A stretch of DNA of 64,000 nt from Mobula hypostoma (lineage: Eukaryota). Location: positions 72,170,001 to 72,234,000 of the forward strand of contig NC_086108.1 of the NCBI RefSeq assembly GCF_963921235.1, given 5' to 3'. Made by a program: the position numbers and the translations under genes. The notes beneath the pieces are model-generated. The model was given only the letters and a program-made list of their open reading frames with translations. It searched no databases and had not been told where the DNA came from. Below, piece by piece: positions 1-63,897 of this stretch; position 1 is the first letter of the stretch; each line of letters begins with the position of its first letter.

Positions 1-1652
1 CTAGCTGCATGCCAGAGGTCTGGGAGTGCCAGGGAGCATGAGTGAGTGCCATTGCTATAACAGTGCTAGGCAAACGGAAAGGTCTTAAGGTGGATAAGTC
101 ACCTGGAACAGATGGACTACATCCCAGAGTCCTGAAAGAGGTTGCTGAAGAGGTAACTGATTCATTGGTCATGATCTTTCAAGAATCACTTGAATCTGTC
201 ATGGGCCCTGAGGACTGGAAGACTGCAAATGTCACTCCATTCTTTAAGAAGGGAGGAAGTAAAAGAGAGGATATTATAGGCCAGTTAGCCTAACCTCAGT
301 GGTTGGGGAAAGTGTTGGAGTCCATTATTAAAGATGAGGTTTTGGAGTACTTGAGACAAATGATAAAATAAGTCAAAGTCAGTATGGTTTCTGTGAAGGG
401 AAATCTTGCCTGTCAAATCTGATAGAGGTCTTCGAGGGAGTAACAAGCAGGGTGGATGAAGCAGAGGCAGTGGATGTCATTTACTTTGATTTTCAGAAGA
501 CATTTGATATGGTATCAGCCATGAGGCTGCTTAACAAGAAAAATTCCTATGGTGTAACAACAAAAACACTGGCATGGATAGAGGAGTGGCTGACAGGCAG
601 GAGTGGGAATAAAGGGGCCTTTTATGGTCAGCTGCTGGTGTCTAGTTGTGTTCCTGAAGGGTGAATATTGGTACCACTGCTTTTCACATTGTTTTTCAAT
701 GATTTCCATAGTGGAATTGATGGCTTTGTGACGAAGTTTGTAGTGATACGAAGATAAGTGGAGGGGTAGGTAGTGCTGAGGAACCAATGCGATTGCAGCA
801 GGACTTAGGCAAATGGAAGAATGGGCAAAAAAGTGGCAGATGGAATACAGTGTTGGGAGATGTATGATAATGCATCTTGGTAAAAGGAACGGTAGTGCGG
901 ACTATTATCTGAATGGGGAGAAACTTCAAACATCAGAGGTACAAAGAAACCTAGCAATCCTTTGACTCCCAGAATGTTAATTCACAGGCTGAGTCTGTGG
1001 TAAAGAAGGATAATGTAATGTTCGCATTTATTTCAAGGGAAATAGAATTTACAAACAAGGAGATAATGCTGAAGCTTAATAAGACACTAGTTAGTACACA
1101 TTTAGAGTACTGTCAACAGTTCTGGGGCCCCTTATCTCAGAAAGGATGTATTGTCATTGGAGAAGGTCCAGAGGAGGTTCACAAGGATTATTCTGGGAAT
1201 GAAAGAGTTAACATATGAGGAGTGTTTGGTGTCTTTGGGCCTGTACTCACTGGAATTTAGAAGAATGCTTGGGGATCTCATTAAAACCTACCAAATGTTG
1301 AATGAACTAGATAAGGTGGATTCCTCTGGTGTGAGTATCCAGAACCAGAGGACACAGCCTCAAATTTAAGAGGTGACCTTTTAGAACAGAAGTAAGGAGG
1401 AATTTTTTTTAGCCAAAGAGTGGTGAATCTGTGGAATGCTCTGCCACAGGCTGCAATGAAGACCAAGTCCGTGAGTACCTTCAAAGCGGAAGTTGATAGA
1501 TTCCTGATTGGTTGGGGCATCAAGGGATATGGTGAGAGGGCAGATGTATGGGGTTGAATGGGATCCGGGATCAGTCATGATGAAATGGCGGAGCAGACTC
1601 GATGGGCTGAATGACCTAATTCTGCTCCTGTGTCTTGTGGTCTTGTAGTCTA
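1..1652 (+). mobile_element. CR1-clade LINE, decayed ORF2 RT region plus 3' UTR
   Basis: Frameshifted peptides KSPGTDGLHPRVLKE, EDWKTANVTPFFKKG, VDVIYFDFQKTFD, HLEYCQQFW and VQRRFTR; ends in tcttgtggtcttgtagtc tail. Confidence 0.92.
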
Positions 1653-1980
1653 ATCTACAAACCTCCTCTGCTGCAGATACAGTATGTCATTATTTGAAAT
1701 GCTTCATGCCTACCAACCCTGTTTTCCCCATGGAGGACCCATCTGCCAGGGCCCTAGCTTGTTGCTGCTGGAATACTTGGAAGATGGCACGGAACGTCAT
1801 CCTAACTGCCAACCGCACCTCCTGCTACCAGGCCAACAGCAGGTGGCATCCAGTCAGGCTACTCTGTCTGGGGACCATGTCTGATTACCCGCCTGAGATT
1901 TTCCCCTGCACATCCACTCCCGCAAGCTCTCGTCCCAGGTCATTAGTCCCTTCAGGATTACCCATCATATCAATCCAGTC

Positions 1981-2083
1981 GGGGTTCTGAGTTGGATGAT
2001 CAGCCATGATCATAATAAATGGCGGTGCAGGCTCGAAGGGCCGAATGGCCTACTCCTGCACCTATTTTCTATGTTTCTATGTT
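1981..2083 (+). mobile_element. CR1 3' tail only (about 100 bp, 5'-truncated)
   Basis: Nearly identical to the 3' end of the CR1 at 44177-44285; (tctatgtt)n tail. Confidence 0.85.
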
Positions 2084-2089
2084 TATCTC

Positions 2090-2695
2090 CAGCTGCCACC
2101 ATCCTGCAAAATCACACCTATCTTCCACCTGTCCTGCCTCAAGCCTGTTGTCCATGCACCATATTCACCCCACCTGAGCCTGCATTTCTGCGACCTAGAA
2201 TGGAGGAAGGTAGCCCAGGTATATGGTTCGCTGGTTGATGGATTCATGGATGGGGTACGCATTACTTGGTAGATTGGGAAAGGTACAGCCCCATGGAGAG
2301 ATAATGGATCCAGTTTTATCTTGGATCTATCACTTAATGAGTTCGACCAGACTCATCAGGATCACCCTGTCGAGTGCCCACCATAAGAGGGGGAGTCCTT
2401 TCAGGCAGTACAGGTCAGTGCCTTCCAGTCTCCAACCAGCTAACAGGAGTCACCTGGCACTCATTTCCAACTCATCACCTGTAGCCTATTAAAACCCAGC
2501 TCTCATCCACCATCCTTATTCACTCATCAGACCAGCCAGGATTAATCATTTGCTCCTACCCTTTAGTTACCTTGCTGCCTATCTGTTCCCTCTTGTTTCG
2601 TGCCTCCTCCGGCTTGTTATTTTGAAGTTTATTAGTAAAGTTAATGTTTGCCACTGTTCTGCTGTTGGATCAAGTCTCCACTATATTTCCTGACA
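2090..2695 (+). mobile_element. Gypsy LTR retrotransposon 3' remnant (integrase C-terminus, PPT, 3' LTR)
   Basis: PIFHLSCLKP matches the HPxFHVSxLKP motif (compare [11 protein letters not shown] near 63110); purine tract aagaggggga at about 2385; LTR-like segment with tattaaaa, ending cctgaca at 2695. Confidence 0.65.
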
Positions 2696-4127
2696 AATGG
2701 TGCAAAATACCTCTATATGTCGTGTTAAAATAATGCAGGTCTCAGTTTCTCTTTTATTTGTTTACCCCAGAGCTTCAACCTTTGGATTTGGGGAAAGGAT
2801 AGGGCACCTGCATCCTCAAAAATGTATTCAAATCTCCTTGTTTTCATTATCACTAAAAATCTCTTTTGAAGGGAAGTGTCAAGATAACTAATTAGCTTTT
2901 TCCATTTAAAATGATTTATTGGGACAATTCATTAGAGGTAGTGTGTTGCAATTTCCAGGCTTCATTTGTTTCAGAGATTCTCATCTGATGAATTAACATG
3001 AGGTCCGGGTCCTCCTTTATCCTGTCAAGTCTCTGACATTACTGACAGTGAATAATAGCTGATGGAGCATATCAGCTCGTGCAAAATTTTGGAATCTTTG
3101 CTTACCATCTCTACTATCTCTGTCCTGTAGATCCCTTTCTGTTGTTTACATTATGTTTCTTTTAAATAGAATGATTTTTTTTCTTGTGTCACTTCATAAG
3201 AGTGACTGCATATAAGTGAGAATGTTACTATCTCAGCCATGTTTTTGTGCTTTGTTCAACATCACGTCTAACATTACTGATTTATCGCAGCTTAGTTTTT
3301 TGAATGGAAAATAGTCCACTCTTACGCTGCTTTATGAATTCTGAATTCAATAATTTTCAAGTCTCTTATTTTGCACCATTTTAGCACCTTATTATGTATT
3401 GATTTGGGTATTTGGACATTAATCCTGTCATTTTTAACTAGTTGATTTAATTGCATCACCCAAATGCTTTCATATTTTTTGGATCTGTACGTACTTAAAT
3501 GAAAGGTTATATTTGCACTAAATGTTTTGTTCACATAAAACAAGGACATGGCCTTATGAAATGTAGGAATACTTAAGAATTTGTTTGCAGTTAAAATATA
3601 TTTTTAAATAGTTACATTATTGTTTCTTGGAACAAGAATTGTCAATCCCTGATCAGCCTAATCTTTGATCTATTGTATTCCACTTCTTCAGATCATTAAT
3701 ATATTTGAACATTACTGACAGCTTTAAATCATTCTCCATACCTTTGCTTCAATAAAAATGAAATATGTTATTTACCTGTTTTTTGCACTATAATCTTCAG
3801 CTTAATTTGTTTCTTAAAGGATGCTACTTTTTCTTACAAAGTACATCCCATTTTGTTAATGCCAAGCCATAGTGATGACACTGTCACTGAGCCCTGTAAA
3901 GCCTGGTCAATCAGAGGAAACCTTTTGCTTTTCTGCACATGGCCTCGTAAGTGCATAATAATTACAGAGCTTTTATCTAGAATTATCCTCACTGTGGCTC
4001 AGATTGACTGCAGCTCTCAGTAAACATAGTGCTCTGATGGAATGGTAGCTTTCTGTCTTGTCTCCCAGCTCTCACAATCTCACAATACCTCTGACCCAGC
4101 CAGTGCTTTAGTTCCATTTCCAAAAGT

Positions 4128-5600
4128 CGGGTCCTAGCTATGCTTGCCTGTTTGTCGGCTACGTGGAACAGTCTATGTTCCAAGCCTACACTGGTGACTG
4201 TCCTGCACTTTTCCGAGCTGCATCAATGATTGCATTGGTGCTGCTTCCTGCACCCATGCTGAACTCATTTATTTCATCCACTTTGCCTCCAACTTCCACC
4301 CTGCCCTCAAATTCACCTGGTCCATTTCCGATACTTCCCTTCCCTTTCTTGATCTCGTTGTCTCTATCGCTGTAGACAGCTTATCCAGCAAAATCTATTA
4401 TAAACCAACAGACTCTCACAGCTACCTGGACTACACCTCATCCCACCCTGCTACTTGTAAAAATGCCATCCCTTTTTCTCTCAAATCCTACCTCTCCACC
4501 ACATCTGCTCTCAGGATGAGGCTTTTCATTATAGAACAAAGGAGATGTCCTCCTTTATCAAGGAAAGGGGCTTCCTTTCCTCCACCATCAACACTGCCCT
4601 CAACTGAAATGCTTCCATTTCACCCACGTCTGCTCTTACCCTACGCTCCCGCCACACTACCAGGTATAGGGTTCCTCTGTCCTCACCTACCACCCCATCA
4701 GCCTCTGCTTCCGGCACATAATTCTCTGAAATTTCCACCAACTCCAACTGGATCCCATCACCAAACACATCTTTCCCTCCCCCCACTTTCTACTTTCTGC
4801 AGGGGTTGCTCCCTAGTCTATTCATCCCTCCCTATTAATCTCCCTCCTGGCACTTATCCTTGTAAGCGGAACAAGTACTACACCTGCCCCGACACCACCT
4901 CCCTCACTACCATTCAGGGCCACAAACAGTCCTTCCAGGTGAGACGACACTTCACCCGTGAGTCTTTTGGGATCATATACTGTGTTCGATGCTCCAGGTG
5001 TGGCTTCTTGTATATCGGTGAGACCTGACATAGATTGGGAGACCACTTTGCTGAGCATCTACGCTCCGTCCACTAGAACAAGAAGGATGTTCCGGTGGCC
5101 ACCCATTTTAATTCCACTTTCCATTCCCATTCTGATCTGTCCTTCGATGGCCTCCTTCACTGTCAGTATAAGGCCACACTTAGGTTGGAGGAACAGTTCC
5201 TTGTACTCTGTTTGGGTAGTCTCCAACCTGATGGCATGAACTTCAATTTCTCAAACTACCAGTAATGCCTCCCCCTTCACCATTTCCATCCCCTTTGCCC
5301 CTTTGTCATTTTATCTCCTTGCTTGCCTATCACCTCCCTCAGGTGCTCCCCCTTTTCTTTCTTCCATGGCCTTCTGCCTCTTTCACCAATCAACTTCCTA
5401 GCTCTTTGTTTCATCCCTACCCCTCCAAATTTCACCTATAGCCTGGTGTTTCTCTCTCCCCTCCTCCACCTTTCAAATCTCCTCCTCAGCTTGCTTTCTC
5501 CAGTCCTGCCAAATGGCTTTGCCCCGAAACATCGACTGTACTTTTTTCTACAGATGTTGCCTGGCAAAGTTTCTCCAGCAAATTTTGTGTATGTTGCTCC
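4128..5600 (+). mobile_element. Penelope-like element, decayed RT and GIY-YIG endonuclease plus 3' pseudo-LTR
   Basis: GPSYACLFVGYVEQ, YYKPTDSHSYLDYTSSHP, YCVRCSRCGFLYIGET (GIY-YIG), RLGDHFAEHLRSV and PVATHFNS; degenerate hammerhead motif at 5501-5538. Confidence 0.9.
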
Positions 5601-6752: not shown

Positions 6753-7859
6753 AGTTCCATTTTTCTCTCTAGTGTTGTTTCCACATTGTAATAAATAATT
6801 AAATTAAAAATTAATAAAAACTTCCTGCTATTGCAACAGAAAATATATCACATGCTGGATTATCATTGCTACCCCTGGGAATTAGAATAAACTCTCCATT
6901 TGTTCCAGCACAAAACTTCAAGGCACTGGCTTTCTATTCTAATAGATTACAAATTCTGCCAAAGGTTGCAGTATTAATCAGTATAGTTATAATGCAGTAA
7001 AACTAAATAACCTTGTTCTAAAGTTGGTGGTTGCAATACAAAAGGGGTATTAGAGCTTTTTTCAAAGCGGTGTAATTTGGGACCTCAAGGTTCAATGTAT
7101 GGGAGGAAAGATGATTGTGGGGAGACCATAGAGATGTGATTGACCGCTAAGGAAATTGAGTTAGGAACATACTCGGCTTTGGTCCTGGCAGTGGGGAGTC
7201 AAATATTTTACTAAGCAGTTGAGCAAATTCTCAAGAATGGTTAGTTTTTCATTTGTAAATACGCTGATACTGGTGAAGCCCACCAACTTGGATAGTAAAT
7301 AAACTTGACCTTAAGAGCCAATTACATTCCAAAATGTAAGGTTGCTTGAGTGGTTGCAATGACATTTCTGAAAAAGTCACTTTTCTTAATGCATTAGTCA
7401 CAGGCTGAGCAAGTGATTGAGTGCATATTTAATTCCTTGCAATCTGTATCCATGGAAAGTTAAATTGCTGCACTGCAATCAAGTGACCACAAAATAAGAC
7501 CAAATTGACAGTGCTCTCTCGGTGATGGATTAATGCTTTCGTGATTCTACATCAAATCCTATGTTAAGTTCTTCATTGGATGCTTTAATATGAACAATTT
7601 GCCATCTACTTTTCACTGATCTATTTTCAATGCTTCCTTGTGCCTCTGACAAGCAATTGCCTGAAAGTGTCCTCATTTTTTTTTTAATGCAGTCTCTCTT
7701 CTGCACATGCACACCATAAAAATAATAAAAACCAGCAACAGGAGCCCACTCCTCTCTCAATTTGATAATGGCTAATCTGTTCTCAGTTTCAGGTCTCCCT
7801 CCCTGCCCATCCTAAAACCACTGACTTCCTGCAATGCCAGAAACCTTATCTCTGAATAG

Positions 7860-8220
7860 CGAGTTACCTTGCATGGAGATAGACCCTTCTGCCCATCTCC
7901 TCCATGCCAGCCAAAATGCAAATCTAACATAGTCCTGTTTGCATTTGGCCTGTACCCCTCTAAATATTTCCTACCTGTGTACTTCTCTAGATCTCTTTTA
8001 AATATTATAATTGTGTCTGTTTAAACATTGTAATTGTACCTGCAAAACGTTGTAATTGTCCTTCCATGGTTCAACCTACATGGATCTCTGGAACAGATAA
8101 TTCAAAAGGTTCAGGTAAACAAATAACACAACCTTGTAAAACAGACCGGTTCTTCTTTTTACTTTAAATGGCTAACATCTTACTCTGAAAATGAGACCTT
8201 TAGCTCTAGTTTCACCCATG
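7860..8220 (-). mobile_element. Old CR1 3' fragment
   Basis: Resembles the minus-strand CR1 tails elsewhere (ccctctaaatatttcctacctgtgtac...ttttaaat). Confidence 0.55.
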
Positions 8221-8494
8221 TTTGTGCCAGAACCATTCTATGATTGGAAAACCTGAGTCATCCAATATTTCAATGCCAAAGTTGGGTAGGGAATTGAAAA
8301 TTAGAGATCAGTGGGATTTGAGATGGATAGGATCTGGGCTTGAAGCTCAGCACACGACTAAATAGTGTCCAATTATTGACTGAGGAAAGTGGTTCAGGCA
8401 ACTTTCATATCAGCCTGAACAGATTTTTCTATTTTTCAATATAATTATTGAAAGGGGAGAGGTAAAAGATTTAACTGTGTTGCCTTGATTGGTT

Positions 8495-9777
8495 TGACAC
8501 TGATTCAGCTGTTTCAAAATGAGTTTGAGAGGCACTTCAAAGATACTAAATTAAAGTCTGCAGATATCCAACTAAGAACTTCTACAGGTGAAAAGTTAAC
8601 TCCTGTGGGAATGAAATTGAACTTGTATGTGGTATTAACAGAAGGAACTGCATTGTGGGATGTGATTGGCTCAGACGACTGCAACTTGATTGGAGATCCA
8701 TTCACTATTTGCATGAATCATCCCCTGTAATAAAGCCATCTGAAAGTGAATCAGGAAAGGTACTGGATGATGCCACAACTGTCTCCATGCAGAACACCAT
8801 GAATCATTGCCCAACAGAGGACAAACATGTGTTGGTGACAACGTCAGTACCTCTGGTTGGAAAGCATATTGGACTAAGGAAGGGCCAAGCTGCCCAGTGG
8901 AATTGTGAAAGTGATGAAAGCAGTTGTTCAACTACAACAGTTTTTATAGCAAAAAATCTGAGAAAGCTTCCAATATCTTAAAGAGGCAGTTACTTGTGAA
9001 ATGTGATGATGAATTAAGTTGGAAAGAGTTCAAGGAGTTTCAGGAAAGTTGCATGAATTTAGCTTTTGTGAGTATAAAAACCAGAACCTACTCTATGTGC
9101 ATCAAGGTTGTTGCATGAATTTCAAGTGGGAGTCAAAAAGCTGCTTGTAAAAGTAGATGCAAAGACCCAAGCCCAGCTGGATGAATGGAAGGCCAAAAAG
9201 AAAGGAGTCAATGGAGATACATCAGATGATGTTGCGGATATAGAAACTAAGTGCAGAGATCAGATCGTGAAGGGAGCAATAAGCGAATACTCCATGAACT
9301 AAATATACCTTCCCATGATCATGATGCACAAAGGAGAAGAAACAAAAGGAAGGTGAAGAAAGGTGTCCAGAGCTGTCAGAATCACTTCCTACAGTCTCAG
9401 AGTCGACTCCAACAGCCACCACGGAGAAGGCACCAGAATCTGAGATTGGTTTCACAGCCAAAAGCCTCATCTGTCAAGCAGAGAGAACCCACTTGTCAGG
9501 AAAGATGTTATCCCACAAGAGTAAGAAAGCCTCTGCAATGAAGAAATCTTTCACCCTAAACAGGACAACTTAAAATTTACTATGGTGTGGATGTCTGTAT
9601 ATAGTAGTAATATTAGAAAATATACTGGGAGATGCATTCTACATTGAGTTGGAGCTTATAGCTAAGTAGGGAGGTGTGTTGTTTATTTAATATCTCACTG
9701 ATATTTGAATAATTGTATATAGATTAGTTGATTAAGCATTCTTGTTCATTTAAATAATGGGTTATATGTAAAAATAT
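8495..9777 (+). mobile_element. Internally deleted Gypsy-type LTR element remnant carrying an RBM25 fragment
   Basis: Protease-region peptides QNEFERHFKDTKLKSADIQLRTSTGEKL and GCDWLRRLQLDWRSIH (8500-8780); post-integrase tail ERCYPTRVRKP (about 9500-9540); PPT-like aagtagggagg at about 9664, then tgttg, the probable LTR start, cut by a LINE at 9778. Confidence 0.7.
8825..9360 (+). pseudogene. RBM25: Processed, frameshifted fragment of RNA-binding motif protein 25 (N-terminal RRM region)
   Basis: Stitched translation VGKHIGLRK...TTTVF..SEKAS..L.RQLL.KC...LSWK RVQG.SGKL..F.FCEYK.PE.TL.A.RLLHEFQVG.KKLLVKVDAKTQAQLDEWKAKKK...ETK.RDQIVKGAI..EYS.ELN.PS matches the RBM25 RRM region as I recall it; contiguous with no introns and several frameshifts. 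Confidence 0.88.
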
Positions 9778-10387
9778 GTCAAGTCAAGTTTATTGTCATT
9801 TAATACATGAATATAATGTCTATAACTATATAATGTATAGAGAAACGAGACAATGTTACTCTGAACTTGAGTGTAAAGCACAGTAGTACACATAACACAA
9901 TAACTTTTGAAAGTAAGGATAAAATCTACAGATGAATCACACATAAATAACAAACTAAAGTGCATTAATATTAAATATTGTAAGGTACGGAACAGATTAA
10001 CCAGTGACACTTAGAATACGATGCGACAGGGAGTTCAGAAGTCTAAAGGTCTGAGGGCAAAGACTGTTTCTCATCCTGACCATTCTTCTTTTTATGCATC
10101 ATAGTCTCCTGCCTGAGTCCATGATGCATAGTCTCAGGGAGACCCCTATGATCCTCTCAGCTGTTCTCACAGTCCTTTGTAGGGATTTCTGGTCCAATGC
10201 TTGACTGCTCCCATACCAGATGGAGATGCAACTAGTCAGGACGCTCTCAATAGTGCTCCTGTAAAACACAGTTAAGATGTTGGGGGTGGGGGGGGGGGAG
10301 GAACCTTGCTCGTCTCAGTCTTCCTAGGAAGTGAGGTGCTGCTGTGCCTTCTTGTTCAGGGAGGTGATATTAAGTGACCAGGTGAGG
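9778..10387 (-). mobile_element. Rex1/Babar-type LINE, 3' part (continues at 14462)
   Basis: Minus-strand AATAAA plus (cttga)n tail at 9778-9795; sequence gaccaggtgaggt| rejoins |cttctgtgatgtgaactcccag across the CR1 insertion. Confidence 0.75.
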
Positions 10388-13300
10388 TTAAGAAGGGACA
10401 AGCGGAGAGGCCATTGTTGGGAGTGAGAATGGGAGGGTCAGGATTTGGCTCAAATGAGTCTTCATCTTGGAAGAAGCATTGGCTCTGGGTAAGTTTCTGT
10501 TAAGTTTCCCTTGTTTCCTTACCGTGTCTGGGGTACTTAGTGTAGTTTAAATGACAGTTGTGTTCTTCATGCTGCATGTCTTCCAGGGAACTACACCTGC
10601 ATGGTGCATCCAGCTGCAGCTCCTTGAAGACCATGTTAGGGATCTGGAGCAGCTGCTGAAAACCTTTGGCTTGTACGGGAGAGTGAAGAGATCACTGATT
10701 GGAGCTACAGGGAAATAGTCACCACTAAGTTGCAGGAGGCAGGTAGCTGGGTGACTGTCAGGAGGAATGGAAATTTGAATAGGCAGTTAGCACAGAACAC
10801 CCCTGTGGACATTCCTTTCAATAATAAGGATTCCATATTGTATACTGTTGTGGGGGATGACCTCCCAGGGGAATGCTACAGAGACCAGATTACTGGCACT
10901 GAACATGGGGCTGTGGTGCAGAAGGGATAGAAGGAGAAGAGGGGAGCAGTAGTAAAAAGGGTTCTATGGTCAGAGGAACAGACAGGAGATTCTGTGGACG
11001 TGAATGGAACACACAGACAGTATGTTGCCTCCCAACTGCCAGTGTAAAAGATGCCTTGGATCGCATCCACAGTATTTTGGAGAGGGAAGGAGAGCAGCCA
11101 GATGTCTTGGTACATATTGGTACAAACGACGTGGGTTGGAAAAACAAAGAGGTCCAGAAGAGGGAATTTAGAGAGCTCGGCAGGAAGATGAGAAATAGGA
11201 CCTCCAGGGTAGTAATTTCTGGATTGCAACCTGTGCCATGCACCAATGAGGATAGAAACAAGATGATTTGGCAGATAAATGCATGGTTGAGAAGCTTCAA
11301 GTTCTTGGATCATTGGGATCTGTTCTGGGGGAGGTATGATCTATACAAAAGGGGTAGTTTGCCTGAACTTGAGGGGAACCAATATTCTCACTGGCAGGTT
11401 TTCTAGAGCTGTTGGGGAGGGTTTAAGCTAATTTGGCATGGGAATGGGAACTGAAATGAAGGGACTCAGGACAGGATGGATGGTAAAAAAGCAAAGGTAG
11501 TGTGCAGTCAGCCTGTCAGGAAGGGCAGGCAGATGACAGGACAAAATTGCAACCGGCAGGGTGAGTATCAGTGCATTAGGGATGCAGAATCAAAAAGGGT
11601 AGCAAATACAGAACTCAAGGTGTTGTATCTCAATGCATGGAGTATAAGAAATAAGGTGGATGATCTTGTTGCACTTTTAATGATCGTCTGATACGATGTT
11701 GTGGCCATCACTGAATCATGGCTGAAGGATGGTTGTAGTTGGGAGCTGAATGTCCACAGTTACACGTTGCATCGGAGGGATAGGAAGGTAGGCAGAGGGA
11801 GTGGCGTGACTCTGCAGGTAAAGAATGGCATCAAATCACCAGAACAATATGACGTAGGATTGAAAGATGTTAAATTATTGTGGTTTGAGCTTAAAAACTT
11901 GCAAGGGCAATAGGACCCTGATGGCAGTTATGTACAGCCCTCAGAAAAGTAGCTGGGATGTGGACTACAGATTACAATGGGAAGTAGAAAAGACGTGTCA
12001 AAGGGGCAATGTTATGATAGTCATGGGAGATTTTAACATGCAGGTAGATTGGGAAAATCAGGTTGGAAGCGGATCGCAAGCAAGTGAATTTGTTGAATGC
12101 TTACGAGATGTCTTTTTAGAGCAGTTTGTCATTGACCCCACAAGGGGATCAGCTATACAGGATTGGGTGTTATGTAATGAAATGGAGGCAATTAGCAAGC
12201 TTAAGGTAAAGGAACCTTTTGGAGACAGTGATCACAATATGATTGATTTCACTTGAAGTTTCATAGGGAGAAAGTAAAGTCTGATGTAGTAGTATTTCAG
12301 TGGAGTAAAGGAAATTACAGTGGTACGAGAGAGGAGTTGGCCAAAGTAAATTGGAAGGGGCTGCTGGCAGGGATGACAGCAGAGCAGCAACGGCGTGAGT
12401 TCCTGTGAAAAATGAGGAAGGTGCAGGACAGATGTACTCAAAAAACCAAAGAAATACTCCAATGGCAAAATAGTACAACCATGGCTGACAAGGGAAGTCA
12501 AAGCTAATGTAAAAGCAAAAGAGAGTGCAGAGAGCTAAGCAAAAATTAGTGGGAAAAATAAAGAATCGGGAAGCTTTTATAAACCTGCAGTAAACAACTA
12601 AAAGAATCATTAGGAGGGAAAAGATAAAATATGTAAACAAGCTAGCAAATAATATCAAGGTGGATAGAAAAAGCTTTTTCAAGTATATATAAAAAATAAG
12701 AGAGATGATGAAAATTGATATAGGACCACAAGAAAATGGCACTGGAGAGATAATAACTGGGGCCAAGGAGATGGCAGATGAACTTAATGAGTATTTTGCA
12801 TAATCTTTCACTATGGAAGATACTAGCAGTGTGCCAGATGTTGTAGTGTGTGAAGGAAGAGAAGTAAGTGCAATTACTGTTACAAGGGAGAAAGTGCTCC
12901 AAAAGCTGGAAGACCTAAGGTTACATAAGTTACCCAAAGCAGATGAACTGCACTCTAGGGTTCTGAAAGAGGTAGCAGTAGAGATTGTGGAGGCATCAGA
13001 AATGACCTTTCAAGAATCATTGGAGTCTGGCATGGTTCTGGAGGACTGGAAAATTTCGGACGAACTTGGAGTTGGACTGTGGTGGGATGCTTCCGGGATG
13101 CTGCATCAGCAAGTTTGCGGTGCTGGAGGTTTACCATCTGCATGAGCTGACGGGGCTTTTGAGAGACTTTGAGACTGTACCGTGCCCATGGTCTGTTCTT
13201 ATCAAATTACGGTATTGCTTTGCACTGTTGTAACTATATGTTATAATTATGTGGTTTTTGTCAGTTTTTCAGCTTTGGTTTGTCATGTGTTTCCGTGATA

Positions 13301-14465
13301 TCATTCTGGAAAATCATTGTATCATTTCTTAATGAATGCATTACTAAATGACAATAAAAGAGGACTGTGTGTCCTCATATCTGAAAAAAACCTAAATAGC
13401 AAATATCACTCCACTTTGTAGGAAAGGAAGGAGGCAGCAGAAAGGAAATTATAGACCAGTTAGCCTGACCTCAGTGGTTGGGAAGATTTTGGAGTCAATT
13501 GTTAAGGATGAGGTTATGGAGTACTTGGTGACACAGGACAATACAGGACAAAGTCAGCATGGTTTCCTTAAGGGTAAATCTTGCCTGATGAACCTGTTGG
13601 AATTCTTTGAGGAGATTACAATTTGGTGGGTGGCAGGTAGTATTGAGGAAACAAGTAGGCTGCAGAAGGACTTAGACTGATTAGGAGAATAATTTGGCAG
13701 GGAGATGGGATGAAATAAATGTGCAGACTATTTACTAAACGGGGAGAAAATCCAAACATCTGAGATGCAAAGGGACTTGGGAGTCCTTGTGCAGAACACC
13801 CTAAAGGTTAATTGCAGGATGAGTCAGTGGTGAGGAAGGCAAATGCAATGTTATCATTCATTTCAAGAGGTCTAGAATACAAGAGCAGGGATGTGATGCT
13901 CAGGCTTTATAATCACTGGTGAGGCCTCACCTTGAGTATTCTGATCAGTTTTGGGCTCCTTATCTATGAAAAGATATGCTGGCATTGTAGAGTGTTCAGA
14001 GGAGGTTCATAAGGATGATTCCAGGAATGTAAGGGTTACCATATGATAAATGTTTAATGGCTCTAGGCCTGCAGTCGCTAAAATTTAGAAGGATAAAGGG
14101 GGATCTCATTGATCTCAAATGTTGAAAGGCCAAAACAGAGTTGATGTAGAAAGGATGTTTCCCCTGGGGGGAGTCTAGCGCAAGAGGGCACAGCCTCAGG
14201 ATAGAGGAGTGTCCATTTAAAATGGAGATGTGGAGAATTTGTGGAATTTGTTATCATAGGCCGCTGTGGAGGCCAGGTCTTTGGGTATACTTAAGGCAAA
14301 AATTGATAGGTTCTTAATTGGCCATGGCATCAAAGGTTATGGGGAGAAGGCTGGGGGATGGGGCTGACCAGGGGAAAAAATGGATCAACCATGATGGAAT
14401 GGTGGAGCAGACTCAATGGGTCAAATGGCCTAATGCTGCTCCTATGTCTTATGATCTTATGGTCT
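10388..14465 (+). mobile_element. Near full-length CR1 LINE (ORF1 with SGNH esterase; ORF2 APE endonuclease and RT with internal deletion)
   Basis: ORF1 SMVRGTDRRFCG...VCCLP...VLVHIGTND (about 10950-11400); ORF2 LYLNAWSIRNK, ITESWL, MGDFN, SDHNMI, HSRVLKE, KSCLMNLLEFFEE; RT core deleted at about 13620; (tcttatg)n tail. Confidence 0.92.
13057..13392 (+). mobile_element. 5'-truncated non-coding retroposon 3' end inserted in CR1 ORF2
   Basis: Interrupts the EDWKI|ANITP coding sequence; same family as 19017-19630 in opposite orientation; AATAAA followed by gaggac...gtcctc hairpin. Confidence 0.8.
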
Positions 14466-15670
14466 TCTGTGATGTGAACTCCCAGAAACTTGGTGCACTT
14501 AACTCTCTCTGCAGAGGAGCCATGTATTCACAGAGGTGGATGATTCGTCTGCACCTGGTTGAAGTCCACAATGATTTCCTTTGTCTTCTCCACGTTCAGG
14601 CTTGGGTTGTTCTTCTCACATCAATCCACCAGCCACTCCACTCCCTCTCTGTACTCCGTCTCATCATCATTCTTGATAAGGCCAATGACTGTTGTGTCAT
14701 CCGCAAGCCTGATGACAAGGTTTGAGCTGGATCCTGCAACACAGTCATGTGTCAGCAGTGTGAACAGCAGCGGACTTGCGGTTAGGAAGTCCAGTATCCA
14801 ATTGCAGAGGGAGGTGTTGAGCCCCAGCAAGGACAGGCTCCCCACCAGTTTCTGTGGTAAGATGGTGCTAAGCACCAAGCTGAAGTCTATAAACAGCAGT
14901 CTGGCATATGAGACCCCATTTTCCAGGTGGGACAGGACAGAGTGGAGGGTAGAGGCTATTGCATCGTCAGTGGATGGATTTGAGTGATAAGCGAACTGGA
15001 CAGGGTCCAATATAATCAGGAGAAAGGCTTTAAAGTGCTCCATGTCCAGCCGCTTAAAGCATTTCATAATGGTTGATGTTAATGCCGCCAGATGATAGTG
15101 ATTTAGATAGGTTACCGTCGCCTTCTTTGGCACTGGAAAGATGGTTGCCACCTTGAAAACTGAGGGAACAATGGATTGTTCCAGAGGGATGTTGGATATA
15201 TCCATCAGCCGGGCTGCACAGTCTTTCAGAACCTGACCTGGTATATTATCGGGGGTTTGCGTGGGTTGTCCCTGTCCAGGGTTTTCCTCACCTCAATTTC
15301 ATCCAGACAGAGTGACTTTTCCTTGGGGGGGGGGGGGTACCTTCCTGCCAGCATTTTATTCTGTGCCTCAAACCGGACATAGAAGACATTCAACCTCTCA
15401 GGGAGTGAAGCGTCCTGGTCACTGACGCACAGGGTAGACTTGTTGTCTGTAATCCTCTGAATGCCCTGCTACATGCACCTACATGCAGAAGTGACTGGAA
15501 ATTCCCTGAGAATGCTCCCATTTCACTTTCCTGATGGAGAAGGAACACATAGTTCTTGTTCTCTTGACAGCTGTTGCATCCCCCGATCTACACACAGCAT
15601 CACAATCCCTCGGCGATGCATGGACCTCTGCAGTAAGCAGTGGCTTCTGATTTACATATGTCATCACTCT
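14462..15670 (-). mobile_element. Rex1/Babar-type LINE RT region
   Basis: ORF 14621-15205: IFPVPKK, ALTSTIMKCF, QFAY, STDDAI, LLFIDFS, LCNWILDFLT, SPLLFTLLTHDC, LADDTTVIGLI. Confidence 0.88.
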
Positions 15671-16154
15671 ACCCCATGAAGCAGTGAGCTGAACACTGAC
15701 CCATTCCTTGCCTCTGGACCTGACACCCTAACCTTTTCAATCTGGCCCAGCACTTGAATCAGCCAAACAGCAGATCATTACTCACCCTCGGGCACGGTGC
15801 TTAAATCAGTCAAATCTTGCTTGTTCCTCGCTCTCAGGCCTGGGCCCTGGTGCCGTGATTGCCTCACCTCGGTTCTGCCGTTTTGAATCTCCTTCCAGTC
15901 TGCTCCAGCAGCCAAACATTGGCTCATTCCCCGCTCTCGGGCCCGAGCCCGGGCCCCTGTACCTCGATTTGGCACATAAATACCATACCGCAACCATCCT
16001 GCACCTTTGAAACTTCAGTTCACACCAGAAAAAAATGCCAGATCATGCAGGTGGTTCAAAATCTCGATTCAGCATTTCATCTAGTTTAGTAATCACAGTT
16101 TCTCCTGTTTTGAAGAAAAAGTGTGATTAATAAAGTAAGCAGATGATATGCTGA

Positions 16155-19630: not shown

Positions 19631-19810
19631 CCCCTCCGGAGTGGGTCTTGCAGTGGGTTAGCTACCTAAGGCTATTAACCTTAACACCCAGCAGGTCTTT
19701 CTGAAATATCTTCGGTAAAATCTCAGGTTCTGTACATAATGAATCGAGTTTGGTACATCTTTCTGAATGTTATCTGGAGCCACTGAACTTTTATGACCAT
19801 GAGATGGCTA

Positions 19811-20722
19811 CAACTACCAGCACCAAAAAGACCGAAGTTATGTACCAGCCTGCCCCAGGAAAGCCATACCAGGAGCCGCGCATCATGGTGAAGGGCCAGA
19901 ACCTCCAGGCAGTCGACAACTTCACCTACCTGGGCAGCATACTCTCTCGCGCAGTGAACATAGACGCTGAGGTCAACAACAGGATTGCCAAAGCCAGCGC
20001 CGCCTTTGGGAGACTCCGTGAGAATGTCTGGGAGCGGAGAGGACTCAGCCTTACCACCAAGCTGAAGGTCTACTGTGCAGTGGTCCTTACCACCCTCCTT
20101 TACGCCAGCAAGACCTGGACTGTCTACAGCAGACACGCCAAACAGCTCAACCACTTTCACCTGAGCTGTCTCTGCAGACTCCTCCACATCAGGTGGCAGG
20201 ACAAAGTCCCTGACATGGAAATCCTGGAACAAGCTGGGCTCTGCAGCGTCTACACCCTCCTGCTGAAAGCCCAAGCCAGGTGGGCTGGACATGTGGTCAG
20301 AATGCCAGACAGCCGATTGCCTAAGCAGCTGCTGTACGGAGAACTGTGTCAGGGCAAGCGCTCAGTCAGGGGGCAGAAGAAACGTTACAAAGACTGCCTC
20401 AAAGCGTCCCTCAAAGGCCTGAGTGTTGACATCAACACGTGGGAGACGCTTGCCCTCGACCGTCCAGCTTGGCGCAGCAAGATCACCACAGGAGCCCGTG
20501 CAGCTGAAGTCAGGCGCATCATCGAGGCACAACGAAAGCGTGCTGTGCGCAAGGCCCGAGCAGCATCCACTGCCACGACAGCACCCACCCACTTGTGTCC
20601 CACATGTGGGTGAGCCTTCAGGGCCCGGATTGGCCTCATCAGTCACCTCCGGACCCACAGCCACCAGTCTCCCATTTGACTTTGAAGCCATGGTCATCTT
20701 CGACTACGAAGGACGAACAACA
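19811..20722 (+). mobile_element. RTE-clade LINE, 5'-truncated, C-terminal ORF with C2H2 finger
   Basis: KKTEVMYQPAPG, FTYLGS, RIAKASAAFGRL, RWAGHVVRMPDSRLPKQLLYGEL, GQKKRYKD, CPTCG*AFRARIGLISHLRTH; (caa)n tail; imperfect TSD atgaccatgagatggcta (19793-19810) / atgaccatgatgatgcta (20723-20740). Confidence 0.92.
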
Positions 20723-21948
20723 ATGACCATGATGATGCTAAGTGGTGACTCAGTCCCTAGCATTTCCCTTAGTACCCGTTTAGAACTTCTTGTTAATCTC
20801 CGAGCACATTGAATGGTTTCATTCTTCCTCTTTGGTGATCTTCCTCCTGCACTACAAAGTCCTGTGTATCAGCAGCAGCATCTCGGGAGCACTCTCATCT
20901 CTGTCACAGATATTTGAGAATCCCAATCCCATTTCAGAGAATCCAGTGAAAGGTCTAAGTGAAGCTAAGTTAGGATGACGCTCTGCTGAAAGGGAGATGA
21001 AGAGGCGGTGGAGCTGTGTTTTTGGGTCCGACTTCATCCGTCCTCTAGGACAGACATAAAAATAACTTGCAGCGTCATTATGAGAACGGGCAGACTGTGG
21101 GTGTGGGAAGCCAGTTAGACCCAAACAACAGGCCTTTCTGGAAAAGTAAAAGGCATTTATCTGGTCAGTGCCACTTTGCTGTTTATGACAGATTGCTGTT
21201 GAAAATTGGCTGCCATGCTAACTACATTTAAAAACCACTGCACTAGTTGTGAAGTATTCAGAATATCCTAAGGTTACAAAATGCACATGGTCAGTGTGAG
21301 TATTTCCTTCTTTCTTTCCTAATCCAACTAATCCCAGTTCGGTCAGTAGTTATATCAGTGAAGAAAGGCCTTACTCCGTAGCATTTGCACATGCACATAT
21401 GAACAGCACACATATGTGCAAGCACAGAGATATGTATGTACCCTAATATTTCATTTTATTCCATGTTACTTTCTAGGTTGTTCATATAACGTTTATTAGG
21501 TCATTAAAATATATTCCTTTGATGTCCATCTGGATTAATGTAATGCTGGCAAACTCTTCATTCTGATTGAAATTTACTGCTAGCTACATTAAGTACGTTA
21601 GGCATTTTCAAACCTGCTGATGTCAATGAAGCCATGTCTGTGTAAAAAAAAAAATTCAGTAATTGAGGGAAAACTGATGGAAAAAAATCAAAGACTGGAA
21701 TAGAACATTGTTTTAAATTAAGCTTTAATTCACCTTCAGAAATGTTGATGGTACAGTTGCCTGGCAACTAATTGAATTCCCAGTGAATGTACAAAGGAAA
21801 TTGCAATGTGCCCTTTAGGTATTGAGGCATTGATAACTTTCTTGTCTTTGAGTAGAAGAACAGTGCTTGATTGCACAATAATCCTCCCTTAACCTTGATT
21901 TTTACTACAATACTTTCTTGAAATGAAGGACAATCAGTCCACTATTTT

Positions 21949-58737: not shown

Positions 58738-59128
58738 TCTGGCCCCTGTATTACTGAATACTCCGTCTCTTATCTGTTTCTCATTATTACCTGTGTTGCT
58801 GCCACCTGTGTCTCATTGTGCTCCACCTATCATCTGCCTCTCTGTTTACTGCTCAGTGTATGTCAGTCCTGTGTTTTCACCTGTTTGTTGCCAGATTGTC
58901 CCAGTGAATTTTCCTGAGCCTTTCCAGTATTCATATCTGTACTCTGTCTGTTTGAATATCAACTCTGCCTGTTTCCTGATTCTGGTTTTTGGATTTCTCT
59001 GGATGTTTTGATCTCTGCCTGAACTTTGACGCCGACTTTGTTTACACCTTGTGATTTGTTACTCAATTAATATCACTGTGTGCACAGTATTGGGTCTGCG
59101 ATTGGATCCCTGCTCCAGCATCCTGACA
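58738..59128 (+). repeat. 5' LTR (first ~100 bp missing)
   Basis: Aligns with about 63505-63895; ends cctgaca. Confidence 0.92.
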
Positions 59129-59143
59129 GTACAATCTGGCCAG

Positions 59144-60109
59144 AATGAATCCAGCAGACCCCGATTATCTGAGAGATGCCCTGGAACAACAGGGAGTGAT
59201 GCTTGGGGAGACACCAGATCCAGATGGACTCCGTATCAGGGCAGTGGAGTTGCTTTCTGCTAAGGTCACCAATCTTATGGCCCAGACTCAGTCTTTCCAT
59301 CTGTCCTAGAGCGCCCATCAACATTCTGTGACTGCATCTTCTGCCCTGCCCTCTGCGTCCTCGCACGGTCCTCCTGTTCAAAAGCCCTGTCTACCTCCTC
59401 CAGAAAAGTACTCAGGTGAGCCCAGTACCTGCTGCTCTTCTCTTTCCCAGTGCACCCTCATTTTTGAATTACAGCCAACAACATTTCCAGCTGATTGAAC
59501 CAAGGTATCCTACGTCATCACCCATCTGTCCACTGGGAGGCAGGCTCCCCTTTCTGCAGTAGTTTTCAGTTATTTTCTGAGGAGATAGGAGACGTTTTTG
59601 ATTGCTCCAAACGTGGGAGAGAGGCTGCCCATGAAATGCTGCACATGCACCAGGGGCGCAGATCTGTGTCAGATTATGCCATAGAGTTCTGGACCCTAGC
59701 CACCTCCAGCAGCTGGAACTCAGATGCACAGTACGACACCTTCCTGAACGGCTTCTCTGAAGACATCAAAGATGAGCTGGTCACCCAGGACCTTCCTGCC
59801 CCCTTTGAAGCCCTGATGGATTTGGCCATCTGTATTGATGTTCACTTTCAGCAGTGGTACAGAGGGAGGTGTTCCAGAGGGTCCCTGGGGGTACTGGGTA
59901 AGTTCCAAGCTCCTCATCAGTCTGCATTGCCCTGCCGTTTGCCTCCATGTACAATTCCCATCCCAGAGCCCAAGACCAAACATGTAGACTGTACCTGGCT
60001 GATGCTGACTGAAAGACAAAGAAAAATCAGCACCTGCTCATGTCTGTACTGTGGCCAACCAAGCCACTTCATCTCCACCTGCCCAGTAAAAGCCAGCCCT
60101 CACCAGTAG
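59144..60109 (+). pseudogene. gag (sushi/PEG10-like), frameshifted
   Basis: PEKYSGEP, HQGRRSVSDYAIEF, FLNGFSEDIKDEL and CCHC knuckle CLYCGQPSHFISTCP. Confidence 0.9.
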
Positions 60110-63100
60110 GATGAGGAGTACTGGTGAGCGTGTCCCCTGTCCTGTCCTCCTCGACACCACTCACTTTCGTACCTGCTTCTCTGGAGTGGGGTGTCCAACA
60201 CCGAGCAATCTCCGTTTTGGTCGATTCTGGTGTGGAAGGGAGTTTTATCGATTCTGGCTTGGCTGCCCAGTGGGGACTACCCACGTCTGCTCTCCAGTCA
60301 CCATTAATGGCCAATGCCTTGAACGGTCAGAGACTAGCTAACATCACCCATGTCATAGCCCCAGAGAGTCTCAGTTTATCTAGCAACCATCATGACAGTT
60401 AACCCTTTGTTATTGACTCTCCTCATTGTCCTGGGTCATCCCTGGTTAGTCAATCACAACCCCCACATTGACTGGCTCAGTCACTAGATTGTAGGCTGGA
60501 GCCCATTCTGTCACTCCCACTGCCTCCACCATGCTCAGATCCCCTTGTCTCCAAACCCAGATCCCCCCGAGGAATTTCTGGATCTTAGTGCCATCCCTCC
60601 TAAATACATGGAACTCTAGGCTGTGTTCAGCAAGTCCCAGGCCACTTCCCTGCTGCCTCATTGTCCATATGACTGCGCCATTGACCTCTTGCCTGGCACA
60701 CCTCCCCCAAGGGGCTGCCTGTACTCCCTATCTGTACCTGAAACAGAAGCCGTGAGTAAGTACATTCAAGAGTCTCTGGCTGCAGGCATCATCCGGCTGT
60801 CTTCCTCCCCTGCTGGTGCCGGCTTTTTCTTTGTTGAAAAGAAGGATGGCTCCTTGTGTCTATGCATTGACTACCGGGGACTGAATGAGGTCACTGCTAA
60901 GAATCGTTACCCTCTTCCGCTCATGACCTCGGCATCTGAACTACTACAAGGAGCCTCAGTTTTCACCAAGCTTGATCTCCATAACGCCTACCATCTTGTC
61001 TGCATCCGTGAAGGAGACAAGTGGAAGACGGTTTTTAACACCACTTCAGGCCATTATGAGTATCTGGACATGCCATTTGGTCTCACCAATGTCCCCACCG
61101 TCTTCCAAGTCCTGGTAAATGACGTTCTCAGGGGCATGCTGATCCAATTTGTTTTTGTGTATCTCGACGACATTTTGATTTTTTTCTAAGTCCCTTGCTG
61201 AACACACAGGTCACGTTCACAGAGTTCCCCAGCGCCTTCTGGAGAACCAGCTCTTTGTGAATACTGAGAAATGTGAGTTTTATCACAATATAGTATCCTT
61301 CCTGGGGTACGTAATTTCAGGTGGTTCCATTCAGTTGGACCAACAGAAGGTCAAGGCTGTGGTTGAATGGCCCCAACCCTCGACTCATTGGAGCTGCAAC
61401 GCTTCTCGGGCTTCATTAACTTCTATCGCCACTTCATCAGAACTGGCTGTATCACTCATTGCTCTTACCTCATCGACTGTCAGATTCTCCTGGTCCCCTG
61501 CTGCTGGAAAAGCATTCTCTGACCTGAAGGAACATTTCACCTCTGCCTCCATCCTGATTCAACCAGACACCGACCGACAGTTCTTTGTGGAGGTGGATGC
61601 ATCTGACACTGGTATAGGAGCTGTTCTCTCTCAGCGCTCGGCCAAGGATGAGAAGGTACACCCCTGCGCCGCCTTCTCTCACCGCCTCACTCCCACGATG
61701 TTGGAAACTAGAAGCTGCTGGCTGTGAAGCTAGCTCTGGAGGAGTGGAGGCATTGGCTGGAGGGAGCAAAGGTGCCATTCTTAGTCTGGACTGATCACAA
61801 GAATCTGAAATATATCTGTACTACCAAGCATCTCAACTCCTGTCAAGCTCGTTGGTCCCTGTTTTTCTCAAGGTTCAATTTTACTCTGTCCTTCCGCCCT
61901 GGTTTCAAGAATGGAAAACCTGATGCCCTCTCCCAAAGATTTCCTTCCTCCGAGACCCCTGAGGTACCCGATGTCATCCTCCCAGCTCACTGTCTCGTGG
62001 GTGCAGCGCAATGAGACATTGAATCCATTGTGCAAGCTGCTCAACAGAGCGAGGCAGTCCCTAGTCAATGCCCCACTAACCATGTTTATGTTCCCAGCTC
62101 TGTCCACTCACAGGTATTGCAGTGGGGTCATTCTTCCCGGTTATCCTGTCATCCTGGAACCAGGCGTACTCAGACCCTCATCAGTCGGTGGTTCTGGTGG
62201 CCCTCCATGGGAGATGACATCCGCAACTTTGTCTCAGCCTGCTTGGTCTGTGCTCAAGGCGAGAACTCTAACAGGTCACCTGCTGGTCTGTTACAAGCCA
62301 GGTCTACCCTCAAGAGACCCTGGTCCCACATTGACCTGGACTTTGTCACCGGTCTTCCCCCATCAGATGGTAACACCACCATTCTCACAGTAGTTGAACA
62401 TTTCTCCAAGTCTGTACACTTCATTCCTTTACCTAAACTTCCCTTGGCCAAAGAAACAGCCAAATTACTAATACTGCATGTTTTTAAATTACATGGTTTA
62501 CCTGTAGATGTTGTGTCAGACAGGGGCTCTCAATTCACATCCAACTTCTGGAGGGCATTCTGTAATCTTCTTGGTGCCTCAGTGAGTCTGTCTTCAGGAT
62601 TCCACCCACAGACCGATGGCCAGACCAAGTGGGCCAACCAACAGCTGGAGATAGTATTGCGGTGTCTGGTCTCCCAGAACCCATCCGCATGGAGTCAGCA
62701 GCTACCCTGGCCCAAGTACTCTATAAACTCTCATCCATCCTCATACACCGGTCTGTCCCCCTTCGAGTGCTGCCTTGGCTACCAACCTCCACTGTTTCCT
62801 GCCCAGGAGGAGGAGGTTGGCGTTCCACCTGCCGAGGCATTCATCCGCCGTTGTCAGCAGATGTGGAGGCGCACTCGCTCCGCCTTTCTTTGTGCCTCAG
62901 CTAGGATCAAGAGTCAAGCTGACCACCATCACTCCAGGACCCCACGTTACCGCCAGGGACAGCGTGTGTGGCTTTCAACCCGAGACCTGCCCCTCAAGGT
63001 GGATTCCTGCAAACTCTTTCCCCCACTTCATCAGCCCCTTTCCCATTGCTAAAGTCATCACCCCTGCTGCCGTCCGTCTCAAGCACCCCTCCACTCTCTG

Positions 63101-63366
63101 CGGCATTCATCCCACCTTCCATGTGTCCCGCATCAAGCCTTTCATTAGCCACCCCGTGTCCTGTCCCCAAACCCTCCCCTCCCCCACGATTCATCAACGG
63201 GTCGGAGGCCTTCATGGTGCGTCGACTGCTGGACGTTTGTCACCGTGGCCTCCAGTGCCTCGTGGACTGGGAGGGCTATTGTCCCGAGGAGTGTGCTGAT
63301 TCCCCACCCTTAACATCCTGGACTCCTCTCTCATCAGGGACTTTCATCGCCAGCACCCAGCTCTAA
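60110..63366 (+). pseudogene. pol (protease, RT, RNaseH, integrase, chromodomain), disrupted
   Basis: [46 protein letters not shown]...[31 protein letters not shown] and [11 protein letters not shown]. Confidence 0.93.
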
Positions 63367-63406
63367 CTATCGTGACAGCAGGAGGCGTCCGTAGAGGTGG
63401 GGATAC

Positions 63407-63895
63407 TGTCAGTGCCTCCAGTTGAACTCTGTCTTTTTGTGTGTTTTCCCCCTAACTGTCAGTCTGTGGTTTTGTATTGCCATGTGCTCCCATCCCTGCT
63501 CTACTCCGGCCCCTGTATTACTGAGTACTCCGTCTCTCACCTGTTTCTCATTATTACCTGTATTGCTGCCACCTGTGTCTCACTGTGCTCCACCTATCAT
63601 CTGCCTCTCTGTTTACTGCTCAGTGTAGTTCAGTCCTGTGGTTTCACCTGTTTGTTGTCAGGTTGTGCTGGTGAATTTTCCTGAGCCTTTCTAGCATTCG
63701 TCTCTGTACTCTGTCCATCTGAATATCAACTCTGCCTGTTTCCTGATTCTAGTTTTTGGATTTCTCTGGATGTTTTGACTTCTGCCTGAACTTTGACACT
63801 GACTTTGTTTGCACCTTGGGATTTGTTACTCAATTAATATTACTGTGTGCACAGTACTGGGTCTGCGATTGAATCACTGGTCCAGCTTCCTGCCA
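63407..63895 (+). repeat. 3' LTR
   Basis: Starts tgtca after the PPT; ends cctgcca, a variant of cctgaca. Confidence 0.92.
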
Positions 63896-63897
63896 GG

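Follow-up and report, generated by a model that had tools for sequence, protein, structure and literature searches.

An RBM25 fragment between the arms of a probable LTR element

The window, that is, the whole 64-kb stretch of DNA analysed here, contains on its plus strand an intron-free piece of RBM25 coding sequence of about 580 bp (from 8772 or 8778 to about 9354), oriented in sense to a repeat element that flanks it on both sides. The flanks are very likely those of an LTR retrotransposon, and likely one of the Gypsy type, an assignment for which anatomy, sequence resemblance and weak Atlas leads are the grounds. The features of the locus, in window coordinates, are:

8150-8485, no strand: single-copy upstream flank, outside the element; orthologous insertion site shared with organism B (X1 record 1, X3 record 24)
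8494-8777, plus strand: left arm, 5'-truncated and decayed, which has frameshifts and an internal deletion and likely represents the aspartic-protease region of a Gypsy-type pol together with the linker
8772-8777, plus strand: candidate 5' switch point, a possible microhomology of 6 nt (start of the alignment to protein P0122, and contig ends)
8778-9354, plus strand: internal RBM25 fragment, consisting of an alternative 5' segment, the RRM and a linker up to the KKEE-coding exon end (protein alignments)
9355-9560, plus strand: right arm, likely the post-integrase tail of pol (contigs of four runs joining at 9355, high depth)
9561-9662, plus strand: 3' untranslated part of the element (high-copy depth continues)
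9663-9674, plus strand: polypurine-tract-like sequence, 11 of 12 letters purines (sequence)
9675-9779, plus strand: likely start of the 3' LTR, with TG at 9675, AT-rich (21% GC) (sequence; in bin 9718-9773 the depth is about 2,700 times that of single-copy DNA)

A homology search with the stop-free frame at 9078-9299 returned 216 candidates, 157 of them at E ≤ 0.001; among the 120 of these matches that were listed, the named proteins are RBM25, except for one myosin-VI-like protein with an RRM, and the rest are hypothetical, unnamed or uncharacterized entries. The top match is a shark (Heptranchias) RBM25-like protein (P0001, 75% identity, E 9.5e-23), which tblastn maps onto 8787-9328, and a frameshift-aware alignment finds P0122 colinear with about 8772 to about 9361, with 137 of the 202 aligned residues identical. 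The preliminary description of this DNA had recognized an RBM25 peptide in an intron-free, sense piece, and the alignments confirm this, but the length is about 580 bp rather than the 540 bp or so that it gave. Relative to P0122 the aligned stretch has four frameshifts (near 8955, 9026, 9079 and 9294) and deletions only, comprising 590 nt where 633 would be expected. Both of its ends are cut: it covers residues 12 to 222, approximately, of P0122, and full-length relatives (P0005) have about 830 residues. The whole RRM lies within the captured piece (RRM_1, residues 72-140 of P0122 according to Pfam), which stops well short of the acidic repeat region and the PWI domain. A 16-residue segment encoded at 8781-8828 occurs, among the aligned proteins, only in the shark isoforms (P0001, P0121) and P0122, and has no counterpart in the aligned RBM25 proteins of bony fish and mammals; the piece also lacks the four residues that tell shark isoform X1 from X2, and its sequence fits a spliced transcript of the X2 type. 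The captured piece may serve as a fossil record of an old, shorter splice form of RBM25 carrying the 16-residue segment.

Exon borders were predicted by comparing 10 RBM25 proteins, from isoforms and from ORFs of other fish that read through introns. A block is missing from P0051, whose match picks up again at KCG; in P0005, 5 additional residues stand ahead of AFG, where the matches of P0034 and P0056 start (that of P0113 starts one residue later); after NG there are 30-odd foreign residues in P0034 and P0056, and P0113 diverges there too; and the matches of P0001, P0121 and P0034 end after KKEE or its equivalent. The four splice junctions predicted in this way (near 8829, 8999, 9055 and 9213) are crossed without an insert in the window, and the RBM25 match is lost within a few bases of the last predicted exon end (KKEE). 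With borders taken from other fish, the captured sequence is consistent with an origin in a spliced mRNA.

The element copy begins abruptly at about 8494, inside a protease-like region that opens with a degenerate D-T-D-S-A at 8496, which we take to sit where the D-T/S-G motif of the protease is expected. That the flanks are of the Gypsy type, as first described, agrees with the Atlas leads for the left arm, PF00077 (score 0.87, 31% of members) and PF08284 (0.85, 17%), which are clusters of retroviral aspartyl proteases and are both weak, with scores under 0.9, but Pfam and protein searches gave the assignment no support: Pfam over 7 frames returned nothing relevant (two sub-cutoff, unrelated matches, and none for the left-arm read-through), and two left-arm peptides drew 3 and 12 candidates in homology searches, none significant.

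The element resumes at 9355, as the loose ends of contigs indicate, with an arm whose label of post-integrase tail is presumptive and comes from resemblance. A tail after RBM25 had been described before; it is present as a high-copy arm, but starts at 9355 and not at 9361. A search of 1.84 billion representatives with the tail peptide yielded 4 proteins, which were dismissed as chance matches (the 3 that were scanned are unrelated, being a PRDM9-like zinc-finger protein and two others), and Atlas clusters of bacterial resolvases were dropped at scores of 0.8 or less. Further downstream, the polypurine tract stands directly ahead of the TG-starting, high-copy, 3' LTR-like stretch, a feature of LTR elements that was also anticipated in the preliminary description. 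Such a tract and a TG-starting 3' LTR are common to all LTR elements and are not specific to Gypsy. The LTR-like start is cut at about 9780 by a LINE-type insertion, and the window yielded neither the remainder of the LTR downstream of this LINE nor a TSD marking the insertion. For this element no gag and no second LTR copy were found in the 64-kb window, and RT, RNaseH and integrase are absent between the two flanks, in agreement with the earlier account. Rfam gave 0 matches over 7800-10500; 25 pattern matches in viral contigs included none that was confirmed, and metagenome contigs had 0 matches for each of the junction-side patterns.

At the 5' junction, the codons A-T at 8772-8777 fit both the frame of the element and RBM25, and this overlap, a match at the protein level, is a candidate microhomology. 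The frame 8592-8981 is stop-free from the left arm across the 5' junction into RBM25, and this is the only junction seen to be in frame, in the present copy. Near 9355 there is a purine-rich, EE-coding overlap between RBM25 and the right arm, again seen at the protein level. As reported earlier, neither a poly(A) nor a TSD surrounds the RBM25 piece: no run of six or more A stands at either of its ends, the sole one being internal (8951), and the longest word common to the neighbourhoods of the two junctions is a 7-mer that does not bracket the piece. Decay in so old a copy could hide either feature.

Copies of the chimera in sequencing-run contigs

Contigs of 4 of 24 sequencing runs were aligned to the window: X1 (organism A), X3 (organism B), X20 (organism J) and X22 (organism A again, from a separate study). 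X1 and X3 are DNA runs, and X20 and X22 are guessed to be RNA runs; X1 is identical to the window over 8150-8581 and may be from its source sample. The similarity cut-off for contigs was 80%, below which private decay of the window copy would drop other places.

Upstream of the element, at 8150-8485, there is one main contig in each DNA run, with a depth of 15.5 in X1 and 12.4 in X3. Depth then jumps from single-copy to hundreds- to thousands-fold in bin 8486-8541, and high depth is confined to the element, ending at bins 8486 and 9774. Over the nine bins of RBM25 the ratio to the flank ranges from 24 to 4284 in X1 (median about 500) and from 23 to 3029 in X3 (median about 450). These ratios are read as a family of hundreds to a few thousand copies, with the warning of the tool that summed contig depth is no copy number and would be inflated by overlapping short contigs. 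Across the 5' junction the depth ratios are nearly flat (1705, 1627 and 1299 in X1), suggesting that the chimera makes up a large share of its lineage.

The 5' junction is bridged by 19 of the 32 pieces listed (the longest 32 of 27,660, thus not a random sample), with at least 31 letters on each side. Seven of these bridging pieces are from X1, 5 from X3, 3 from X20 and 4 from X22; they represent three organisms and are 15-21% different from the window copy. In a contig of 961 nt from the third organism (X20 record 11) the left arm continues through the junction into 147 nt of RBM25, and the right arm is present as well, the arms being 385 nt apart vs 430 in the window; in addition, a joint from RBM25 to the tail (9217 to 9350) is present in one contig each of X1, X3 and X20. 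At the RBM25 sites 8838 and 9168, at least 112-127 contigs of X1 and X3 have another letter, counts being capped at 128. The junctions are therefore multi-copy. Since depth is raised over the element including its RBM25 part, and the pieces bridging the 5' junction are diverged, the chimera itself multiplied long ago, and an amplification that had been supposed before is now shown. Some contigs of X1 and X3 step back by about 42 bases at 9366-9411, a short tandem duplication that is possibly a marker of a subfamily.

Contigs also bear on what occupied the place of RBM25. In X20, 22 contigs of other copies break off from the alignment at 8777, and contigs that enter it at 9355 number 169 in X1, 178 in X3, 43 in X20 and 16 in X22; the loose letters at both points are unlike the opposite arm; no joint skipping from 8777 to 9355 is among the 15 of 565 joints that were listed. 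Both observations indicate that RBM25 replaced element sequence and did not interrupt it, and the replaced stretch, to judge by its position, would be that of RT, RNaseH and integrase.

This insertion predates the split of organisms A and B: X3 record 24, from organism B, spans 8150-8711 and has the same insertion with 5 other letters and 14 gap letters, and X3 record 30, likely from the same locus, differs at 4 of 244 positions. Organisms A and B are thus about 1-2% apart at the orthologous insertion vs 15-21% between copies, so that the burst of copies long predates the separation of A and B. The window copy stands alone at many sites against almost all of the other contigs, which also depart from it at several of the positions where it is broken, for which reason its damage looks private; the window copy is dead and most likely does nothing today. 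Some members of the family may be transcribed, as is hinted at by the four bridging pieces in X22, a guessed RNA run whose contigs carry neither strand nor level and in which the single-copy flank has no cover.

Origin and spread of the chimera

It is highly probable that a spliced RBM25 mRNA was captured by an LTR retrotransposon through template switching and that the product then spread as a non-autonomous element. The mRNA would have been packaged in the particle of the element, and two template switches, one at about 8772-8777 and one near an exon end at about 9355, would have exchanged RT-RNaseH-integrase for about 580 nt of coding sequence. The shortened element, having kept its LTRs and purine tract, could have been copied in trans by the enzymes of intact relatives, reaching hundreds or a few thousand sites, and its copies would then have decayed neutrally, the one in the window losing its 5' half and receiving a LINE in its 3' LTR. 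Retrotransposition is proposed as the means of spread because the flank is single-copy and the copies are divergent, the window copy itself having neither an LTR pair nor a TSD of the element. The mechanism is already known and the scale is unusual; no function is shown. The preliminary description had likewise argued for a non-autonomous LTR family carrying an RRM and against a LINE-made retrocopy, and its reading is supported: of the observations that it named as contrary, a peptide unlike RBM25, single-copy junctions and a poly(A) or TSD were each looked for and not found.

LINEs are abundant in the window, and RBM25 might instead have entered a Gypsy element as a LINE-made retrocopy, which then lost its two ends through deletions that also took pol, before the resulting element was amplified. 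The divergence of 15-21% between copies could have erased a poly(A) or a TSD, and the microhomology at the switch point is a candidate at the protein level only. This course of events is nevertheless distinctly unlikely: additional deletions would have to stop precisely at the one junction and at the other, and the fragment, which comes from within the coding sequence and ends (at about residue 222 of P0122) a long way before the 3' end of the mRNA, lies in sense to the element and is in frame at the 5' junction; poly(A) and TSD are lacking, as is the intact mRNA 3' end of a processed pseudogene. Very unlikely is a single capture whose copies arose by duplication at the DNA level, as tandem arrays or segmental duplications, and not by retrotransposition, because the flank is single-copy right up to an element that is hundreds- to thousands-fold, because depth is high only as far as the element extends on either side (bins 8486 and 9774) and because the copies differ by 15-21%; in its favour, the truncated copy offers no LTR pair or TSD, and contigs cannot place the copies.

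Whichever way the copies were made, RBM25 might have been selected as cargo, whether as an RRM fused to Gag-protease, as host-like sequence that blunts silencing, or as a source of small RNAs regulating RBM25. The inclusion of the whole RRM and the in-frame 5' junction count in favour of such a role, and the nearly constant depth across that junction allows that the chimera dominates its lineage; the X22 pieces that bridge the junction could be its RNA, and precedents may be seen in the silencing RNAs of PxyMasc retrocopies (PMC9674220) and the donor-gene siRNA conflict in maize (PMC13317346), as these are presented in the cited sections. Against this, the left arm of the window copy is broken and its RBM25 part is frameshifted at four places, an in-frame junction is expected by chance in one third of cases, in-frame retrocopies are common among young LTR retrocopies, and short non-autonomous elements can proliferate with no need of a useful cargo (PMC5131818). 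Selection of the cargo is accordingly unlikely. The bolder proposition, that the element took the RRM of an essential splicing factor and thereby out-multiplied its intact parent, has a similarly small chance of being correct. If it were true, a Gag-protease-RRM fusion would have aided the RNA of the element, or silencing of the cargo would hit RBM25 itself, and in a cartilaginous-fish lineage the host gene would be exposed to small RNAs from RBM25-like loci numbering hundreds to thousands.

Comparison with known captures, and other elements of the window

Acutely transforming retroviruses carry a host mRNA fragment in place of pol and need a helper. HERV-K/FAM8A1 likewise has a host mRNA fragment in place of pol and is helper-dependent (PMC5131818). 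Both are retroviral, whereas the element with RBM25 is likely of the Gypsy type, with spread in the germ-line genome, and no env is seen in its window copy.

The closest likeness is to the LTR-mediated retrocopies of animals (Tan et al. 2016, Genome Res 26:1663, PMC5131818), of whose seven distinguishing characters five are found here: a partial mRNA cut at both ends, loss of introns, no poly(A) or TSD, internal replacement, and spread with shared switch points. The retrocopies in the cited text of that study are also partial mRNAs, cut at both ends, that replace internal ORFs of an LTR element; they have no poly(A) or TSD, are usually in sense and often in frame, and underwent secondary spread as non-autonomous elements, and in BLASTOPIA, too, one switch point is near an exon junction. 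Unlike them, the RBM25 chimera has hundreds to thousands of copies, is old (15-21%) and is present in three organisms; the words shark and cartilaginous are absent from the main text of PMC5131818.

Bs1 of maize is similarly an LTR element with exonic host fragments and switch points common to all copies, but it exists in 1-5 copies, draws on three donor genes and includes a chimeric gene that was retained (PMC5131818, PMC13317346, in the passages cited), whereas the RBM25 family derives from a single donor, is far more numerous and has no function shown. Pxyfem, the W-linked PxyMasc retrocopies of the diamondback moth, resembles it in combining spliced host cDNA with remnants of an LTR retrotransposon in multiple copies; there are 11 tandem copies with a demonstrated silencing-RNA role, as the cited part of PMC9674220 has it, whereas the copies of the RBM25 family are many more and likely dispersed.

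None of the titles and abstracts listed in the literature searches describes this family, though repeat databases such as Dfam or Repbase may catalogue it without noting its cargo, and the main text of a 2026 preprint on manta and devil ray genomes has no RBM25 and no retrocopy, though its supplements could hold repeat libraries. The mRNAs captured by LTR elements of animals number one to about a dozen copies in the cited parts of these papers. An amplified block of exons from RBM25, a housekeeping splicing factor, in a vertebrate is like a Pack-type element made by retrotransposition. In these fishes the family would interfere with the annotation of RBM25, with the mapping of reads and with estimates of copy number. 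Its copies, numerous and dated, also allow one to ask if a cargo from a host gene lets an element evade silencing, or compels the host to exempt an essential gene from attack by piRNAs.

The window as a whole is repeat-rich DNA of vertebrate type, and a cartilaginous fish is its likely source, since the top RBM25 match is to a shark protein. A separate, near full-length LTR retrotransposon occupies 58738-63896, with direct repeats at 58738-59129 and 63505-63896 (91% over 300 nt) and gag, RT, RNaseH and integrase in Gypsy order (Pfam); as possible kin of the RBM25 flanks it was rejected, tblastx giving no significant match, and it belongs to a different family. The LTR-like start of the RBM25 element is interrupted by a minus-strand LINE-type element (about 9780-15800), itself split by a plus-strand CR1-like LINE (about 10390-14465), both class names being presumptive. 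No Pfam match was obtained for an ORF at 14621-15292, and the remnant of the first ORF of the CR1-like LINE (10903-11406) matches OSK and GDSL-esterase models (Pfam). A decayed ORF at 4198-5260, without a Pfam match, presumably resembles an RT of the Penelope type with a GIY-YIG tail, and a stop-free frame of 302 codons at 19705-20613, also without a Pfam match, is what we take to be the 3' part of an RTE-type LINE. The remnant of a Tc1-like DNA transposon lies at 21930-23587, with inverted arms of 129 nt (86%) and a transposase HTH (Pfam, E 1.7e-17).
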